Positions 1 through 6,279 of a stretch of 6,279 nt of DNA are shown here, piece by piece. The position numbers and the translations under genes are program-made. The notes beneath the pieces are model-generated. The model saw only the letters and a list, made by a program, of their open reading frames with translations, was not told where the DNA came from and searched no databases. The stretch's first letter is position 1; each line of letters opens with the position of its first letter. Source of the stretch: a virus (lineage: Duplodnaviria; Heunggongvirae; Uroviricota; Caudoviricetes); the IMG/VR virus record IMGVR_UViG_2681813262_000009; one strand, written 5' to 3'.

Positions 1-29
1 CAACTGGATATTTTTACAGTATTAAGCAT
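1..29 (-). CDS. 5' end (first ~9 codons, MLNTVKISS...) of a DNA methyltransferase gene; the gene body continues leftwards beyond the window
   Basis: Bases 1-29 are identical to 4063-4091, which is the N-terminus of the 3462..4091 minus-strand ORF carrying a DPPY motif. Whether this copy is intact cannot be seen. Confidence 0.5.
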
Positions 30-61
30 GGATCATTAAGCCTGTCTCTGATAGGCTCATT

Positions 62-80
62 CTGCTTTTGCGCAAAGCAG
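62..80. promoter_or_regulatory. Imperfect palindrome ctgcttttgcgcaaagcag about 35-50 bp upstream of the methyltransferase start; possible operator
   Basis: 7-bp arms ctgcttt/aaagcag around a tgcgc core, seen in the sequence. Function is inferred only. Confidence 0.2.
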
Positions 81-121
81 TGGGCCTGAGGTTTGCTTGT
101 GAACCCAACGCATGAGCAGAT

Positions 122-152
122 GGCTGGTGGGTGCCCCTAACACCCACCAGCC
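122..152. repeat. Perfect 12-bp inverted repeat with 7-nt loop (ggctggtgggtg-cccctaa-cacccaccagcc)
   Basis: Exact reverse-complement arms seen in the sequence. No U-tract follows on either strand, so it is not a classical intrinsic terminator. It lies between the small-ORF terminator and the methyltransferase start. Confidence 0.5.
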
Positions 153-168
153 GCCCATTTACCACAAA

Positions 169-193
169 TAAAAAAGCCTTCACTGCGGAAGGC
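169..193 (-). terminator. Rho-independent terminator after the 65-aa ORF
   Basis: Minus strand reads GCCTTC-CGCAGT-GAAGGC followed by TTTTTTA. The stem contains the ORF stop codon TGA. Confidence 0.55.
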
Positions 194-377
194 GTCTGTA
201 ACAACCGAACTGATAGTCTGCCAGACCCGCCATAACCAGCTGGGTCAGTATTAACTGGCAGCGTTCGCGTGAAAGGTAAGTATTCTGCGCTATCTCCCCG
301 ACTGTCGCCGGTTCGGTAACGCTTAATTCATTAAACACCACTCTGGCGGTTTCTGTCATATCCTGCTGTTTTAGCAT
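180..377 (-). CDS. Hypothetical 65-aa protein, possibly a small winged-helix/HTH-like DNA-binding protein
   Basis: ORF track MLKQQDMTE...RRLPQ. ATG at 375-377 is preceded by AAGGA with ~6-nt spacing. It is identical in both repeat copies and followed by a terminator. The HTH guess rests on the helix-turn-helix-like stretch TVGEIAQNTYLSRERCQLILTQLVMAGL and is inference. Confidence 0.45.
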   Translation of the reverse strand: MLKQQDMTETARVVFNELSVTEPATVGEIAQNTYLSRERCQLILTQLVMAGLADYQFGCYRRLPQ

Positions 378-495
378 GTCTTTTCCTTTTCCGGTTAACG
401 TGACACACCAATAACTCTTGTCGAAAAAGCCAGCAAGCTGAAAGACAGGTATTCACCGCCACCAGCGCGTTTACTGTACTGACGCGATTTCAGTC

Positions 496-521
496 ATAAA
501 AAACCCGCTCGGCGGCGGGTT
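496..521 (-). terminator. tR'-like rho-independent terminator ending a short pR' transcript
   Basis: Minus strand reads AACCCGC-CGCCGA-GCGGGTT followed by TTTTAT, about 65 nt downstream of the predicted pR' start. Confidence 0.65.
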
Positions 522-553
522 GTAGAAACTCTTCTAACGTCAGGCATAAAACG

Positions 554-596
554 CCCATCGTTATGACGAATTTACCACAGATTCCGGAAAAATCAA
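554..596 (-). promoter_or_regulatory. Sigma70 late promoter resembling lambda pR' with a -10-like pause element; the Q-utilisation site is expected here
   Basis: Minus strand: -35 TTGATT (plus 591-596), 16-bp spacer, -10 TAAATT (plus 569-574), 6 nt, then AACGATGGG (plus 562-554). As I recall it, lambda pR' has the same TAAATT -10 followed by AACGATGGG. It sits immediately downstream of the Q-like gene. Confidence 0.6.
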
Positions 597-601
597 CCTT
601 G

Positions 602-1423
602 TTACCTAGTTACCTTTTTTAACTGCCGCTCAGCCCATGCTTCTTCAATATCAAACCGGGTCACCAGCGCATCATAAAATTTCTTAACTGTTTTTTCCCA
701 TGACGCGCGTGTTATCTGGTTTGTCACCTCGCATATAGCATTAAATGCCTCCGTTGATGGTAGTCTTTCATAGCCACGACCACCACAACGCTGGCAGTCT
801 CTGATAACAGGCATACCACGTTTTACCGACTCTTCACGATGAATGGCGACACCACGCCCACGGCAATCCTTACAGGCGGTGGAAACCTCACCCTTTCCGC
901 CACACTCCGGACAGGCAACTTTTACCACCTCCCTGACTTTTTTCCATTCTTCCCAGTAAGACGGATACACACCTTTCGTACACTTTGCCCATACCGGCGG
1001 CTTACCATCCGGATACTGGACCTTGTTTGTAAAAACTACGCTTTCAATAAATTTTTCCCCATAGCAACAAGGGCACTGCTTTTTACTCGCTGCGCTGCGG
1101 GCATAATCCTCAAAAGCGTACGAAGCCATAATGCGCATCACTACCGGTTTTATTTCTGCCGGAAGTTTTCTCAACGCCGCCACACGATCGCACCGACTGA
1201 GTGCATAATCTGCCAGTAATTCTGTTGCCCGCGCCCTGTCATTCATACTGATGCCCATTTTCCCCAGGAACGCAGAAAACCCCATCTCAGCCCGATTCTG
1301 TGTCATGCCCTGCGCGGCCATCACATCAGTGATACTCAGCGCATCTTTTGACGTTGAGGCCGATGCATCGGTCAGGCAAGGGGATTTTGGGGAGTAGTAT
1401 TTCGGTAAATCTTCCAGTTTCAT
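602..1423 (-). CDS. Phage antitermination protein Q (long Q family of enterobacterial lambdoid prophages), 273 aa, cysteine-rich
   Basis: ORF track. Position is immediately after rusA and immediately before a pR'-like promoter/terminator. Contains CxxC motifs (CPCC, CPECGGKG, CKDCRGRG, CQRCGGRG) suggesting zinc binding. N- and C-terminal sequence resembles what I recall of prophage Q homologues. Start overlaps the rusA stop (ATGA). Confidence 0.75.
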   Translation of the reverse strand: MKLEDLPKYYSPKSPCLTDASASTSKDALSITDVMAAQGMTQNRAEMGFSAFLGKMGISMNDRARATELLADYALSRCDRVAALRKLPAEIKPVVMRIMASYAFEDYARSAASKKQCPCCYGEKFIESVVFTNKVQYPDGKPPVWAKCTKGVYPSYWEEWKKVREVVKVACPECGGKGEVSTACKDCRGRGVAIHREESVKRGMPVIRDCQRCGGRGYERLPSTEAFNAICEVTNQITRASWEKTVKKFYDALVTRFDIEEAWAERQLKKVTR

Positions 1424-1794
1424 TTTTTGACCTGCTCTTCATGCATTATGGGGTAAATCTTCACCCCCAGACGTCCACCAGATACTGGCTGACCACGAAC
1501 GATATTGATTTCATCAAACTGCTCATCGTCCATTAACACTCCCGCATGTGTCAGTGCATCCAGTGGTGCTTTCAGGATATTGTCCAGGTCACGACGGCGC
1601 TTATCCGGTGGCTCTGCAATAATCTTTATCGCCAGTCTTCCGGACAGGCTTAATTTCAGTCGCTGCTGACGGACAATAAGCGCCACATCCCGGCGATAAC
1701 GCTCACCGGCTTTTGATACAAAATATGTGTTGTCACGACGTCGCCAGTAAGTATTCACCGTCGGCGGATAAGGTAAAATAAACTCATGGCGCAT
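1420..1794 (-). CDS. rusA: RusA-family Holliday-junction resolvase (crossover junction endodeoxyribonuclease), 124 aa
   Basis: ORF track. The motif PDKRRRDLDNILKAPLDALTHAGVLMDD matches the conserved RusA catalytic region (PDRRRRDLDN...DAL). Translationally coupled to both neighbours. Confidence 0.85.
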   Translation of the reverse strand: MRHEFILPYPPTVNTYWRRRDNTYFVSKAGERYRRDVALIVRQQRLKLSLSGRLAIKIIAEPPDKRRRDLDNILKAPLDALTHAGVLMDDEQFDEINIVRGQPVSGGRLGVKIYPIMHEEQVKK

Positions 1795-2051
1795 CAGCGC
1801 AGCACCTCCTGCACCAGTTTTTCAAACTTTCCGACTCTGGTTTCCAGCTCTGCCACACAGTCCACCAGCTCATCTACTGCTTTCTGTGCGCGATGCTTCG
1901 CCTGCATCAGTTCCCGAAGCGCGGGTACCATATCTTTACGGATAGCGTCTTTTGTTATGCCCGTTTTTTCGAGTTGTTCAGCATGACGCAGCATTTCCTG
2001 CGCGTGTTTACGCAATTGTTCAGGGGTAAAAGTCATTGTCTGGTTGTTCAA
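1794..2051 (-). CDS. Hypothetical phage nin-region protein (85 aa from TTG at 2051, or 80 aa from ATG at 2036), predicted helical
   Basis: ORF track. Stop overlaps the rusA start (TGATG). GGAG lies 9 nt upstream of the TTG. An in-frame stop at 2067-2069 prevents any further upstream extension. Confidence 0.55.
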   Translation of the reverse strand: MNNQTMTFTPEQLRKHAQEMLRHAEQLEKTGITKDAIRKDMVPALRELMQAKHRAQKAVDELVDCVAELETRVGKFEKLVQEVLR

Positions 2052-2171
2052 AAGAAACGCTCCATCTTACTGCTGTCAGTTCGTTTATTACTGTATCTGC
2101 GCGGATTGCCGGGCTTCATGGGAGTGGAAAGCACCCGTGCACTTTCCTGGTCCACAGGCAGAAAATGTCCG

Positions 2172-2212
2172 TAGACTGGCCCCCTGAATCTCCAGACAAC
2201 CAGTATCACTTA
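2172..2212. repeat. IS2 left terminal inverted repeat (IRL)
   Basis: Imperfect match to the reverse complement of 3462-3502 (shared ...TTCCAGACA...TATCACTTA). Confidence 0.85.
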
Positions 2213-2262
2213 AATAAGTGATAGTCTTAATACTAGTTTTTAGACTAGTCATTGGAGTACAG

Positions 2263-2628
2263 ATGATTGATGTCTTAGGGCCGGAGAAACGCAGACGGCG
2301 TACCACACAGGAAAAGATCGCAATTGTTCAGCAGAGCTTTGAACCGGGGATGACGGTCTCCCTCGTTGCCCGGCAACATGGTGTAGCAGCCAGCCAGTTA
2401 TTTCTCTGGCGTAAGCAATACCAGGAAGGAAGTCTTACTGCTGTCGCCGCCGGAGAACAGGTTGTTCCTGCCTCTGAACTTGCTGCCGCCATGAAGCAGA
2501 TTAAAGAACTCCAGCGCCTGCTCGGCAAGAAAACGATGGAAAATGAACTCCTCAAAGAAGCCGTTGAATATGGACGGGCAAAAAAGTGGATAGCGCACGC
2601 GCCCTTATTGCCCGGGGATGGGGAGTAA
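2263..2628 (+). CDS. insC: IS2 OrfA (InsC), 121 aa, HTH transposase N-terminal component
   Basis: ATG at 2263 preceded by GGAG. Protein [29 protein letters not shown]... The ORF track's extended 136-aa start at 2218 is upstream of this site. Confidence 0.9.
2580..2586 (+). other. Programmed -1 ribosomal frameshift heptamer A AAA AAG joining orfA to orfB
   Basis: aaaaaag at 2580-2586 lies in the orfA frame (GCA AAA AAG TGG), and orfB is in the -1 frame overlapping here. This is the classic IS3-family arrangement. Confidence 0.8.
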
Positions 2629-3491
2629 GCTTAGTCAGCCGTTGTCTCCGGGTGTCGCGTGCGCAGTTGCACGTCATTCTCAGACGAACCGATGACTGGA
2701 TGGATGGCCGCCGCAGTCGTCACACTGATGATACGGATGTGCTTCTCCGTATACACCATGTTATCGGAGAGCTGCCCACGTATGGTTATCGTCGGGTATG
2801 GGCGCTGCTTCGCAGACAGGCAGAACTTGATGGTATGCCTGCGATCAATGCCAAACGTGTTTACCGGATCATGCGCCAGAATGCGCTGTTGCTTGAGCGA
2901 AAACCTGCTGTACCGCCATCGAAACGGGCACATACAGGCAGAGTGGCCGTGAAAGAAAGCAATCAGCGATGGTGCTCTGACGGGTTCGAGTTCTGCTGTG
3001 ATAACGGAGAGAGACTGCGTGTCACGTTCGCGCTGGACTGCTGTGATCGTGAGGCACTGCACTGGGCGGTGACTACCGGCGGCTTCAACAGTGAAACAGT
3101 ACAGGACGTCATGCTGGGAGCGGTGGAACGCCGCTTCGGCAACGATCTTCCGTCGTCTCCAGTGGAGTGGCTGACGGATAATGGTTCATGCTACCGGGCT
3201 AATGAAACACGCCAGTTCGCCCGGATGTTGGGACTTGAACCGAAGAACACGGCGGTGCGGAGTCCGGAGAGTAACGGAATAGCAGAGAGCTTCGTGAAAA
3301 CGATAAAGCGTGACTACATCAGTATCATGCCCAAACCAGACGGGTTAACGGCAGCAAAGAACCTTGCAGAGGCGTTCGAGCATTATAACGAATGGCATCC
3401 GCATAGTGCGCTGGGTTATCGCTCGCCACGGGAATATCTGCGGCAGCGGGCTTGTAATGGGTTAAGTGATAACAGATGTCTGGAAATATAG
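2586..3491 (+). CDS. insD: IS2 OrfB (InsD), transposase catalytic (DDE) component, 301 aa; normally made as an OrfAB fusion by frameshifting
   Basis: ORF track [14 protein letters not shown]...[14 protein letters not shown]..., in the -1 frame relative to orfA. Confidence 0.9.
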
Positions 3492-3502
3492 GGGCAAATC
3501 CA
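3462..3502. repeat. IS2 right terminal inverted repeat (IRR)
   Basis: The reverse complement TGGATTTGCCCCTATATTTCCAGACATCTGTTATCACTTA pairs with IRL. Confidence 0.85.
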
Positions 3503-4091
3503 AGGCACTGAACCAGTGCGACACCATGTTTTTCTTTCCTGTGGCATCTGCAATCTGTTTTGCCGTTATCCCCAGGGCCGCGCGCGCATCACGAAAGTAA
3601 GAAATCAGCGGGGCCATCACATGCTGTTTCAGTGCACTGCCCTTCGCCGCATACCCGGCATCTTTCGGACGATACGGCCCCTGATAATGTTCCGCGAACA
3701 GAATGCGCTCTGTGGCGGGGAAATACGCCCGCAGGCTTTCCTTGTTGCATCCGTTCCAGCGTCCGGACGGCTTCGCCCAGATAATATGGTTCAGCACACT
3801 GAAGCGTTCACGCATCATGATTTCGATATCAGATGCCAGGCGATGACCACAGAACAGGTAAAGACTTCCGGCAGGTTTCAGCACCCGCCAGAACTGCGCC
3901 AGACACTGGTCCAGCCACTTCAGGTAATCATCGTCGCCCTTCCACTGGTTATCCCAGCCCTCAGGCTTCACTTTAAAGTACGGCGGGTCCGTGACTATCA
4001 GGTCAACAGAATTTTCGGGTAACGACCGGATAAATTCCAGGCAGTCGGCGTTGATTAACTCGCAACTGGATATTTTTACAGTATTAAGCAT
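3503..4091 (-). pseudogene. Beta-class DNA methyltransferase (N6-adenine/N4-cytosine type, DPPY motif) truncated after codon 196 by IS2
   Basis: ORF 3462..4091 has DLIVTDPPYF at residues 30-39. Only the first 196 codons are non-IS sequence; the last 13 codons and the stop come from the IS2 right end. The C-terminal region expected to bind SAM is absent. Confidence 0.8.
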
Positions 4092-4123
4092 GGATCATTA
4101 AGCCTGTCTCTGATAGGCTCATT

Positions 4124-4142
4124 CTGCTTTTGCGCAAAGCAG
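4124..4142. promoter_or_regulatory. Copy 2 of the imperfect palindrome upstream of the methyltransferase start
   Basis: Identical to 62-80. Confidence 0.2.
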
Positions 4143-4183
4143 TGGGCCTGAGGTTTGCTTGTGAACCCAACGCATGAGCAGAT

Positions 4184-4214
4184 GGCTGGTGGGTGCCCCT
4201 AACACCCACCAGCC
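4184..4214. repeat. Copy 2 of the perfect 12-bp inverted repeat with 7-nt loop
   Basis: Identical to 122-152. Confidence 0.5.
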
Positions 4215-4230
4215 GCCCATTTACCACAAA

Positions 4231-4255
4231 TAAAAAAGCCTTCACTGCGGAAGGC
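4231..4255 (-). terminator. Rho-independent terminator after the 65-aa ORF (copy 2)
   Basis: Identical to 169-193. Confidence 0.55.
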
Positions 4256-4439
4256 GTCTGTAACAACCGAACTGATAGTCTGCCAGACCCGCCATAACCA
4301 GCTGGGTCAGTATTAACTGGCAGCGTTCGCGTGAAAGGTAAGTATTCTGCGCTATCTCCCCGACTGTCGCCGGTTCGGTAACGCTTAATTCATTAAACAC
4401 CACTCTGGCGGTTTCTGTCATATCCTGCTGTTTTAGCAT
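4242..4439 (-). CDS. Hypothetical 65-aa protein (copy 2), identical protein to 180..377
   Basis: Start taken as the ATG homologous to copy 1 (4437-4439). The ORF track's 94-aa form (to 4526) arises only because a 2-bp indel at about 4446 brings an upstream ATG into frame. Confidence 0.45.
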   Translation of the reverse strand: MLKQQDMTETARVVFNELSVTEPATVGEIAQNTYLSRERCQLILTQLVMAGLADYQFGCYRRLPQ

Positions 4440-4558
4440 GTCTTTTTCCCTTTTCCGGTTAACGTGACACACCAATAACTCTTGTCGAAAAAGCCAGCAA
4501 GCTGAAAGACAGGTATTCACCGCCACCAGCGCGTTTACTGTACTGACGCGATTTCAGT

Positions 4559-4584
4559 CATAAAAAACCCGCCAGGCGGCGGGG
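4559..4584 (-). terminator. tR'-like terminator (copy 2) with a different stem-loop sequence
   Basis: Minus strand reads CCCGCC-GCCT-GGCGGG followed by TTTTTTAT. The stem differs from copy 1 but keeps a GC stem plus U-tract. Confidence 0.65.
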
Positions 4585-4617
4585 TGTAAAAAATCTTCTA
4601 ACGTCAGGCATAAAACG

Positions 4618-4660
4618 CCCATCGTTAGAGCAAATTTACCACAGATTCGGGAAAAATCAA
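4618..4660 (-). promoter_or_regulatory. pR'-like late promoter with pause element (copy 2)
   Basis: -35 TTGATT (4655-4660), 16-bp spacer, -10 TAAATT (4633-4638), then AACGATGGG (4626-4618) are all conserved although the surrounding bases differ from copy 1. Confidence 0.6.
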
Positions 4661-4665
4661 CAACA

Positions 4666-5484
4666 CTATCGCGTTACCCTCTTTAACTGCCGCTCCGCCC
4701 ATGCCTCTTCAATGTCAAACCGAACCACCAACGTATCGTAAAAGCGTTTCACTGATTTTTTCCACGTATCAAGCGTGATAGCACTCGTCACTTTGCATAT
4801 GGCATTAAATGCCTCCGTTGATGGCAGCCTTTCACAGCCACGACCACCACAACGCTGGCAGTCTCTGATAACAGGCATACCACGTTTTACCGACTCTTCA
4901 CGATGAATGGCGACACCACGCCCACGGCAATCCTTACAGGCGGTGGAAACCTCACCCTTTCCGCCACACTCCGGACAGGCAACTTTTACCACCTCCCATT
5001 TTTTCCATTCTTCCCAGTAAGACGGATACACACCTTTCGTACACTTTGCCCATACCGGCGGCTTACCATCCGGATACTGGACCTTGTTTGTAAAAACTAC
5101 GCTTTCAATAAATTTTTCCCCATAGCAACAAGGGCACTGCTTTTTACTCGCTGCGCTGCGGGCATAATCCTCAAAAGCGTACGAAGCCATAATGCGCATC
5201 ACTACCGGTTTTATTTCTGCCGGAAGTTTTCTCAACGCCGCCACACGATCGCACCGACTGAGTGCATAATCTGCCAGTAATTCTGTTGCCCGCGCCCTGT
5301 CATTCATACTGATGCCCATTTTCCCCAGGAACGCAGAAAACCCCATCTCAGCCCGATTCTGTGTCATGCCCTGCGCGGCCATCACATCAGTGATACTCAG
5401 CGCATCTTTTGACGTTGAGGCCGATGCATCGGTCAGGCAAGGGGATTTTGGGGAGTAGTATTTCGGTAAATCTTCCAGTTTCAT
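4666..5484 (-). CDS. Phage antitermination protein Q (copy 2), 272 aa; variant allele with a one-residue deletion and a diverged C-terminal ~55 aa
   Basis: ORF track. Identical to copy 1 over most of its length, with KKVREVV changed to KKWEVV and about 12 substitutions in the last ~55 residues. Confidence 0.75.
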   Translation of the reverse strand: MKLEDLPKYYSPKSPCLTDASASTSKDALSITDVMAAQGMTQNRAEMGFSAFLGKMGISMNDRARATELLADYALSRCDRVAALRKLPAEIKPVVMRIMASYAFEDYARSAASKKQCPCCYGEKFIESVVFTNKVQYPDGKPPVWAKCTKGVYPSYWEEWKKWEVVKVACPECGGKGEVSTACKDCRGRGVAIHREESVKRGMPVIRDCQRCGGRGCERLPSTEAFNAICKVTSAITLDTWKKSVKRFYDTLVVRFDIEEAWAERQLKRVTR

Positions 5485-5855
5485 TTTTTGACCTGCCCTT
5501 CAAGCATTATGGGGTAAATCTTCACCCCCAGACGTCCACCAGATACTGGCTGACCACGAACGATATTGATTTCATCAAACTGCTCATCGTCCATTAACAC
5601 TCCCGCATGTGTCAGTGCATCCAGTGGTGCTTTCAGGATATTGTCCAGGTCACGACGGCGCTTATCCGGTGGCTCTGCAATAATCTTTATCGCCAGTCTT
5701 CCGGACAGGCTTAATTTCAGTCGCTGCTGACGGACAATAAGCGCCACATCCCGGCGATAACGCTCACCGGCTTTTGATACAAAATATGTGTTGTCACGAC
5801 GTCGCCAGTAAGTATTCACCGTCGGCGGATAAGGTAAAATAAACTCATGGCGCAT
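5481..5855 (-). CDS. rusA: RusA-family Holliday-junction resolvase (copy 2)
   Basis: ORF track. Differs from copy 1 at two C-terminal residues (PIMLEGQVKK versus PIMHEEQVKK). Confidence 0.85.
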   Translation of the reverse strand: MRHEFILPYPPTVNTYWRRRDNTYFVSKAGERYRRDVALIVRQQRLKLSLSGRLAIKIIAEPPDKRRRDLDNILKAPLDALTHAGVLMDDEQFDEINIVRGQPVSGGRLGVKIYPIMLEGQVKK

Positions 5856-6112
5856 CAGCGCAGCACCTCCTGCACCAGTTTTTCAAACTTTCCGACTCTG
5901 GTTTCCAGCTCTGCCACACAGTCCACCAGCTCATCTACTGCTTTCTGTGCGCGATGCTTCGCCTGCATCAGTTCCCGAAGCGCGGGTACCATATCTTTAC
6001 GGATAGCGTCTTTTGTTATGCCCGTTTTTTCGAGTTGTTCAGCATGACGCAGCATTTCCTGCGCGTGTTTACGCAATTGTTCAGGGGTAAAAGTCATTGT
6101 CTGGTTGTTCAA
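5855..6112 (-). CDS. Hypothetical phage nin-region protein (copy 2)
   Basis: Identical to 1794..2051. Confidence 0.55.
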   Translation of the reverse strand: MNNQTMTFTPEQLRKHAQEMLRHAEQLEKTGITKDAIRKDMVPALRELMQAKHRAQKAVDELVDCVAELETRVGKFEKLVQEVLR

Positions 6113-6232
6113 AAGAAACGCTCCATCTTACTGCTGTCAGTTCGTTTATTACTGTATCTGCGCGGATTGCCGGGCTTCATGGGAGTGGAAAGCACCCGTG
6201 CACTTTCCTGGTCCACAGGCAGAAAATGTCCG

Positions 6233-6279
6233 TAGACTGGCCCCCTGAATCTCCAGACAACCAGTATCACTTAAATAAG
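6233..6279 (+). mobile_element. IS2 left end (first 47 bp), truncated by the window edge
   Basis: TAGACTGGCCCCCTGAATCTCCAGACAACCAGTATCACTTAAATAAG is identical to 2172-2218 and sits at the same junction with the flanking prophage DNA. Confidence 0.9.

Follow-up and report, generated by a model that had tools for sequence, protein, structure and literature searches.

In a lambdoid prophage region, the gene for an N6-adenine methyltransferase of the M.EcoGI/M.EcoGII type has probably been turned into a pseudogene by the insertion sequence IS2, which meets it between gene nucleotides 588 and 589, and a second, intact allele probably accompanies it in the same isolate. Taken on its own, the IS2 insertion is likely, if not very likely, to be real. 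The window, that is, the whole stretch of 6,279 nucleotides that was analysed, is the reverse complement of a complete draft contig (CXEJ01000285.1; assembly GCA_001259655.1).

The proposed sequence of events can be outlined as follows. Positions 3504–4091 are the 5′ 588 nt of the gene, situated in a lambdoid late-regulatory region that resembles the one in E. coli 55989. In intact phages, the enzyme of 349–352 aa would be made only when the Q antiterminator carries RNA polymerase through two terminators on induction, and the full-length enzyme would presumably methylate adenines across the phage DNA, thereby evading restriction. Insertion of IS2, most likely at nucleotide 588/589, would leave residues 1–196 followed by a short IS2-encoded tail. 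Such a product would still have DPPY and one half of the helix bundle that serves target recognition, would be devoid of residues 197–349, and would represent a dead pseudogene. Copy 1 of the gene, behind a second Q/pR′ unit, would probably be an intact 352-aa gene, as it is in sister isolates. As for the arrangement of the two units head to tail around one IS2, either two prophage regions have truly been fused by IS2, or the scaffold is a chimera assembled through repeated IS2.

The methyltransferase fragment

Codons 1–196 of the methyltransferase occupy 3504–4091 on the minus strand, and are identified by their Pfam match, sequence identity and allele-discriminating sites as a 55989-like allele of an M.EcoGII-family, beta-class N6-adenine enzyme. 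They form part of a chimeric open reading frame of 209 aa (3462–4091, minus strand), in which the 196 native residues are followed by 13 IS2-encoded codons. The read-through tail and stop codon of this reading frame lie at 3462–3502 (minus strand). A preliminary description of this DNA had recognised a beta-class methyltransferase with DPPY at residues 35–38, which is upheld both by the Pfam match and by alignment with the 55989 homologue. The fragment scores 64 bits against the N6_N4_Mtase profile (PF01555; cutoff 26.7, E = 2e-17), and D35-P36-P37-Y38, in its N-terminal part, is the catalytic motif IV, (D/N/S)PP(Y/F). Alignment to the 349-aa prophage methyltransferase of E. coli 55989 ends after A196, with 195 of 196 residues identical. 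At the nucleotide level, the 55989 prophage shares 98% identity with the window fragment, far above chance.

Coverage of the N6_N4_Mtase model is limited to positions 1–105 of 221 in the fragment, compared with 1–219 in the full-length relatives of 349 and 352 aa. These relatives (349–352 aa) carry FFMGSGST or FFMGLGST at about residues 308–315, which places FxGxG at about 310–314; since the fragment ends at residue 196, it cannot be active. Neither the SAM-binding motif I (FxGxG) nor a complete Rossmann fold was found in the 196 residues by profile or by alignment, and the fragment falls short of the approximately 349 aa expected of the M.EcoGI/M.EcoGII family. As judged from its sequence, this copy is without the 153–156 residues that hold FxGxG and the second half of the Rossmann fold, and cannot methylate. 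The preliminary description had expected the SAM-binding motif to lie in the missing C-terminal part, and the position of FxGxG in the relatives agrees with this. Alignment against full-length prophage enzymes of the N6_N4_Mtase family, proposed there as a check, likewise leaves the fragment with motif IV and without motif I.

Family membership can be specified further. At least 191 of the 196 residues are identical to M.EcoGII, and of the five mismatches one may stem from misreading, as the reference sequence was machine-read from the PDF of Table S1 of PMC11551740. M.EcoGII is an enzyme of 349 aa, of which 333 residues are identical to M.EcoGI, and has the order typical of the beta class, namely DPPY, recognition domain and FxGxG (Murray et al., PMC5778455). 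It methylates adenine irrespective of sequence context, and both M.EcoGI and M.EcoGII are reported to be silent in lysogens (PMC5778455). With about 97% identity to M.EcoGII, the family member represented by the fragment would be expected to share this activity and specificity when full length. The preliminary description had suggested that methylome data might reveal a motif lost in this strain. That suggestion does not hold for an M.EcoGII-type enzyme, which is non-specific for sequence context. SMRT or ONT motif analysis cannot reveal the loss of such an enzyme, which has no recognition motif and is reported to be silent in the uninduced lysogen.

In the domain map of M.EcoGII, the Rossmann fold comprises residues 1–134 and 260–349, and a four-helix recognition bundle spans residues 160–237 (SUPREM paper). 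A cut at residue 196 therefore takes away half of the catalytic fold and runs through the recognition domain. It is extremely improbable that the truncated product still acts, whether by binding DNA, by poisoning dimers in a dominant-negative manner, or through complementation by a separate C-terminal half. The fragment does retain residues 97–110 and 116–140, the predicted dimer interface of M.EcoGII (SUPREM paper), along with the first part of the helix-turn-helix bundle, and a full-length paralogue that could be affected is probably present. However, stable folding is unlikely with half of the Rossmann fold gone, the window holds no sequence of the C-terminal half, and no start codon or promoter for it is visible. 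Residual activity of this kind is a matter of pure inference.

IS2 and the scaffold joins

A complete element of 1331 bp, IS2 of the IS3 family, lies at 2172–3502 on the plus strand; both inverted repeats are present, and insC and insD are intact. Its left inverted repeat begins TAGACTGG and its right one ends GGGGCAAATCCA. Within it, insC (2263–2628, plus strand) and insD (2586–3491, plus strand) are joined by an A6G frameshift site, AAAAAAG, at 2580–2586. The element contains HTH_Tnp_1 and rve domains, its annotation being taken from database matches. Of a further IS2 left end, the contig end contains the first 47 nt (6233–6279, plus strand).

The element at 2172–3502 has no 5-bp target-site duplication, the left flank being GTCCG and the right flank (N)GGCA. 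The two flanks come from different genes, with a helicase remnant on the left and the methyltransferase on the right, where the order is IS2 right end GGGGCAAATCCA, (N), methyltransferase GGCACTGAACC. An IS2 without a target duplication is either a recombinant IS or the mark of a chimeric scaffold through a collapsed repeat.

The deposited record has an N at window positions 3503 and 4998 (2777 and 1282 of the contig as deposited, L011), whereas the window file has an A at both. Comparison of the two shows position 3503 to be an undetermined base at the junction of the IS2 right end and methyltransferase nucleotide 588, and thus to stand for gene nucleotide 589. The contig is a scaffold of three pieces (1–3502, 3504–4997 and 4999–6279), and the IS2/methyltransferase junction is a scaffold join that was never read through. 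Adjacency of the methyltransferase to IS2 presumably rests on the assembler's read-pair links. The earlier claim that IS2 cuts the gene after codon 196 consequently stands in part: the fragment does end there and does abut IS2, but the junction base is an N and unread.

Several apparent features of the window derive from the Ns. The junction codon 'L197' is an artefact of filling the scaffold gap with a base, and the apparent 3-bp deletion in the second copy of Q (272 aa, KKWEVV) is an artefact of the N at 4998. Exact-protein look-up of the 209-aa chimera and the 272-aa Q returned no match, because of the Ns in the record. The exact junction, the Q deletion and the tandem layout should therefore not be taken at face value. 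The methyltransferase-side IS2 junction was not found in 5,426 complete E. coli genomes, GTDB representatives, JGI metagenomes or IMG/VR, and the helicase-side junction was not found in the same complete genomes, GTDB representatives and JGI metagenomes. By similarity, the isolate is E. coli or Shigella, and the lack of both junctions in the complete E. coli genomes might, as a guess, point to Shigella or to a lineage not yet sampled.

Could the interruption itself be an assembly artefact? There would then be no IS2 in the gene, and two full-length alleles would have produced a break at a SNP at nucleotide 589 and a false join to an IS2 contig. The N falls exactly on gene nucleotide 589, which is polymorphic between the allele types (S197, AGT, in 55989; G197 in the sister contig L012). 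Furthermore, both flanking pieces end where graph branches are expected, one on the last IS2 base (3502) and the other on gene nucleotide 588 (3504). The lack of a target duplication and the absence of the junction from every other collection searched also fit a false join. We nevertheless consider it unlikely. The assembler had followed the 55989-like allele across two stretches common to both alleles, of 479 and 75 nt, and past similar SNP branches at nucleotide 30 and at 510/513, which flank the 479-nt stretch. One further SNP is therefore unlikely to have stopped it. That it stops only at nucleotide 588, and there links to IS2, fits a high-copy repeat at that point. The link to the IS2 right end also requires read pairs running from the 5′ half of the methyltransferase into IS2, and in these assemblies contigs normally break at IS ends, as illustrated by sister contigs that start 41–64 nt inside IS2.

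An interrupted gene thus remains the favoured reading, although the join limits what can be said of the 3′ half. The preliminary description stated that the gene lacks its C-terminal region, which is correct for the fragment. At the level of the gene, the loss is less certain, because the junction base is a scaffold N and no target duplication flanks the IS2, so that the 3′ half may sit on another contig.

Late-operon setting

All phage genes in the window are on the minus strand, and two similar units flank IS2. Each unit, followed in the direction of transcription, starts with the 3′ remnant of a phage DnaB-like helicase gene, which the IS2 left end cuts (copy 2, 6113–6232; copy 1, 2052–2171; minus strand). 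It continues with orf85 (5855–6112 and 1794–2051, minus strand) and rusA (5481–5855 and 1420–1794, minus strand), for copies 2 and 1, respectively. Upstream of each rusA copy, at a distance of 378 nt, is an IS2 end. Two non-synonymous SNPs towards the C-terminus (1436/1442 versus 5497/5503) set the rusA copies apart, giving H118/E120 in copy 1 and L118/G120 in copy 2. The L/G form is rare, being found in seven short draft contigs in the protein index. The IS2 left end occurs at the same site in the helicase gene 3′ region in both units (2167–2176 and 6228–6237) and in four sister assemblies (L012, L013, L014 and L016), which makes it a lineage marker.

The Q antiterminator follows at 4666–5484 in copy 2, which has a 55989-like C-terminus and the N at 4998 in the record, and at 602–1423 in copy 1, where it encodes 273 aa (both minus strand). 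The exact copy-1 protein is very common by protein index look-up. Copy-1 Q is a Qin-like protein found in thousands of genomes, and copy-2 Q is of the 55989 type. Downstream of each Q gene is a pR′ late promoter, at 4618–4660 in copy 2 and at 554–596 in copy 1 (minus strand). It consists of TTGATT, a 16-nt spacer and TGgTAAATT, followed by the −10-like pause element TAACGATGGG. This specific pattern has two matches in the window, where none would be expected. We take the combination of TTGATT/TGgTAAATT with TAACGATGGG to be the lambdoid pR′ architecture with its sigma70-dependent pause.

Two intrinsic terminators separate pR′ from the methyltransferase. The first, of the tR′ type, lies at 4568–4583 in copy 2 and at 502–521 in copy 1 (minus strand). 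Between it and the methyltransferase lies the conserved hypothetical gene orf65 (4242–4439 in copy 2 and 180–377 in copy 1, minus strand), whose product is given as a hypothetical protein in the annotations of 55989 and SF-088. The second terminator, after orf65 and directly upstream of the methyltransferase, is found at 4238–4255 in copy 2 and at 176–193 in copy 1 (minus strand). A perfect 11-bp hairpin, GCTGGTGGGTG-cccctaa-CACCCACCAGC, is present at 122–152 and 4184–4214, between the orf65 terminator and the methyltransferase start. An Rfam scan gave only sub-threshold, chance-level matches, the one for the hairpin being P26 at 24 bits against a gathering score of 36. Of the copy-1 methyltransferase, only the first 29 nt are present (1–29, minus strand), at the contig end.

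The placement of the gene in the Q-to-lysis interval, behind pR′ and tR′, is confirmed by the specific pR′ pattern and the terminator calls. The gene had also been described as a moron. It does not qualify as a self-expressed one: a generic promoter scan found no promoter-like site anywhere in the window, and two terminators precede the gene. It is, rather, a known late-operon accessory gene that would depend on Q for its expression. The order Q, orf65, methyltransferase and tRNAs is common to 55989, SF-088, L012 and L014, and a cluster of three tRNA genes lies 3′ of the methyltransferase in 55989, SF-088 and the sister contigs. The orf65–methyltransferase stretch is also present in phage 1720a-02 and in Stx2 phages. 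In E. coli SF-088, the same methyltransferase is annotated as frameshifted (L010 2540–3588).

Two alleles and the status of copy 1

The two units are identical over 1–383, and over 772–2171 they differ by two SNPs, apart from the N at 4998. Between these stretches, within 509–771, there are approximately 55 substitutions, spanning the Q C-terminus and pR′. The divergent patch (509–771 versus 4573–4835) is about 263 bp long, has about 79% identity and is sharply bounded. In a six-way comparison, copy 2 agrees with the 55989 prophage at every one of the approximately 55 sites, and copy 1 agrees with L012, L014 and L013. The sister contigs are five contigs from other draft assemblies with neighbouring accession numbers. 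The two 'copies' are therefore two alleles, not a clean duplication. The Q/pR′ patch is classic lambdoid mosaicism, and the two Q/pR′ pairs may differ in specificity.

Three sites within the methyltransferase discriminate further. The truncated gene has C30, C510 and G513, compared with T30, C510 and G513 in 55989 and T30, A510 and T513 in the sister contigs. The contig's left end is at gene nucleotide 29, one base short of the discriminating SNP at nucleotide 30, which is the pattern of a graph branch between two co-resident alleles.

The haplotype data bear directly on whether the layout is a true IS2-mediated tandem duplication. Such a structure would have the form IS2–unit–IS2–unit–IS2 with a 4,062-bp period, and both methyltransferases would be cut at codon 196. 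It could arise if IS2 copies in the helicase and methyltransferase genes recombined unequally, leaving the 3′ half beyond the left-most IS2. The start-to-start spacing of 4061–4064, the identical helicase-remnant/IS2 left-end junction in both units, and the identity of the copies over 1–383 and near-identity over 772–2171 are all compatible with this. So is the middle IS2, which has no target duplication, as expected of a recombinant IS. However, the approximately 55 substitutions in 509–771 mark distinct haplotypes, and the position of the contig end, one base before the nucleotide-30 SNP, implies a copy-1 methyltransferase distinct from the truncated one. In sister isolates, moreover, the copy-1 haplotype is linked to an intact 352-aa gene, and the layout is known only from a scaffold with two N joins. 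We regard a true duplication as improbable. A clean IS2-mediated tandem duplication was the reading first favoured, and it was downgraded by the haplotype table and the Ns.

The reading of one interrupted and one intact allele agrees better with what lies beyond the contig end in related assemblies. From the IS2 left end on, L012 and L014 share 99.8% identity with copy 1, and both run into an intact 352-aa methyltransferase (DPPY, FMGLG) and then the tRNA cluster. By sequence comparison with these sisters, the copy-1 methyltransferase of the isolate is probably the intact 352-aa allele. Copy 1 had previously been given as of unknown status because it runs off the window. It does run off the contig end, but its status is not simply unknown, given that the sister haplotype joins an intact gene. 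Similarly, the presumed loss of phage-encoded methylation holds for the truncated copy but not for the strain, as the intact 352-aa gene of the sisters comes close to the finding, a complete methyltransferase in copy 1, that the preliminary description itself named as contrary to its claim. Loss of methylation capacity at the strain level is unlikely.

If the scaffold is correct, one IS2 would fuse two lambdoid late-regulatory modules head to tail. The fused order would be Q–pR′–orf65–methyltransferase′, IS2, helicase remnant–orf85–rusA–Q–pR′–orf65–methyltransferase. Such a fusion, in this order, seems doubtful, but it would have consequences for expression. Q-modified polymerase from the upstream pR′ could pass IS2 into the second rusA–Q unit, and each rusA would follow an IS2 end at a distance of 378 nt, an arrangement like that of the K-12 rus-1 suppressor. 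Constitutive expression of M.EcoGII is harmful (PMC5778455). Were the fusion true, it and the frameshifted and IS-flanked copies found elsewhere might reflect recurrent selection against a leaky, harmful methyltransferase.

Prevalence and recurrent decay

Of 5,426 complete E. coli genomes, 1,978 carry the methyltransferase family, at up to six places per genome. In 61 of the 1,978 matching genomes, no match spans 80% of the gene, and decay of the methyltransferase gene appears to be recurrent across genomes. Transposase genes of ISEc23 or IS1 occur in other complete genomes within the matched Q-to-methyltransferase region. Among phages, 41 records carry the methyltransferase, mostly Stx2-converting phages plus 1720a-02. 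In the 15 phage matches listed, DNA identity over the fragment and the upstream orf65 region is 95.7–96.7%.

The truncated gene has little biological weight, being a routine pseudogene in a strain that has probably kept an intact paralogue. Its value lies in annotation. The gene belongs to the M.EcoGII family, methylome motif calling is uninformative on its loss, and the A at window positions 3503 and 4998 replaces the Ns of a scaffolded draft contig.

Comparison with known systems

M.EcoGI and M.EcoGII (E. coli O104:H4 C227-11; GenBank EGT69837.1) have the same N-terminal DPPY as the fragment, and the 349-aa homologue in 55989 has the same length as that reported for M.EcoGII. Both are non-specific N6-adenine methyltransferases, and M.EcoGII acts on DNA and RNA. 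They are reported to be prophage-borne; the position behind Q was seen here for near-identical homologues, not for M.EcoGII itself. Unlike M.EcoGII, the window copy comprises only residues 1–196, with about half of the recognition domain gone, and is a pseudogene.

Beta-class enzymes with solved structures, namely M.RsrI (1eg2), CcrM (6pbd), M1.MboII (1g60) and DpnA (5hfj), share the order of motifs, beginning with DPPY and ending with FxGxG. The full-length homologue matches these structures in two separate stretches, one N-terminal and one C-terminal. The similarity is only distant, however: the central recognition domain is unrelated, and the solved enzymes are sequence-specific.

M.EcoGII belongs to a very large family carried by E. 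coli prophages, including phage 1720a-02 (PMC5778455). Phage 1720a-02 and the Stx2a-, Stx2c- and Stx2d-converting phages have the same orf65 neighbour, and their methylases are annotated as complete. In the Stx2a/2c/2d phages, the interval runs Q, orf65, methylase, tRNA and stx, whereas the window has neither stx nor the tRNA cluster. The methylases of phage 1720a-02 and the Stx2 phages are full length, while the window gene ends at IS2 and the scaffold N.

IS2 is likewise a known resident of lambdoid prophages. In the K-12 rus-1 mutation, rusA is switched on by an upstream IS2 (PMC1636454). IS2 lies upstream of rusA in the window as it does in rus-1 (DLP12), and the window IS2 is the complete 1331-bp element with the insC/insD frameshift arrangement. 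It differs from IS2 in lambdoid prophages, rus-1 included, in that the IS2 on the methyltransferase side has no target duplication. Disruption of so widespread a prophage accessory gene by an IS element is routine, and nothing about the window gene departs from known systems.
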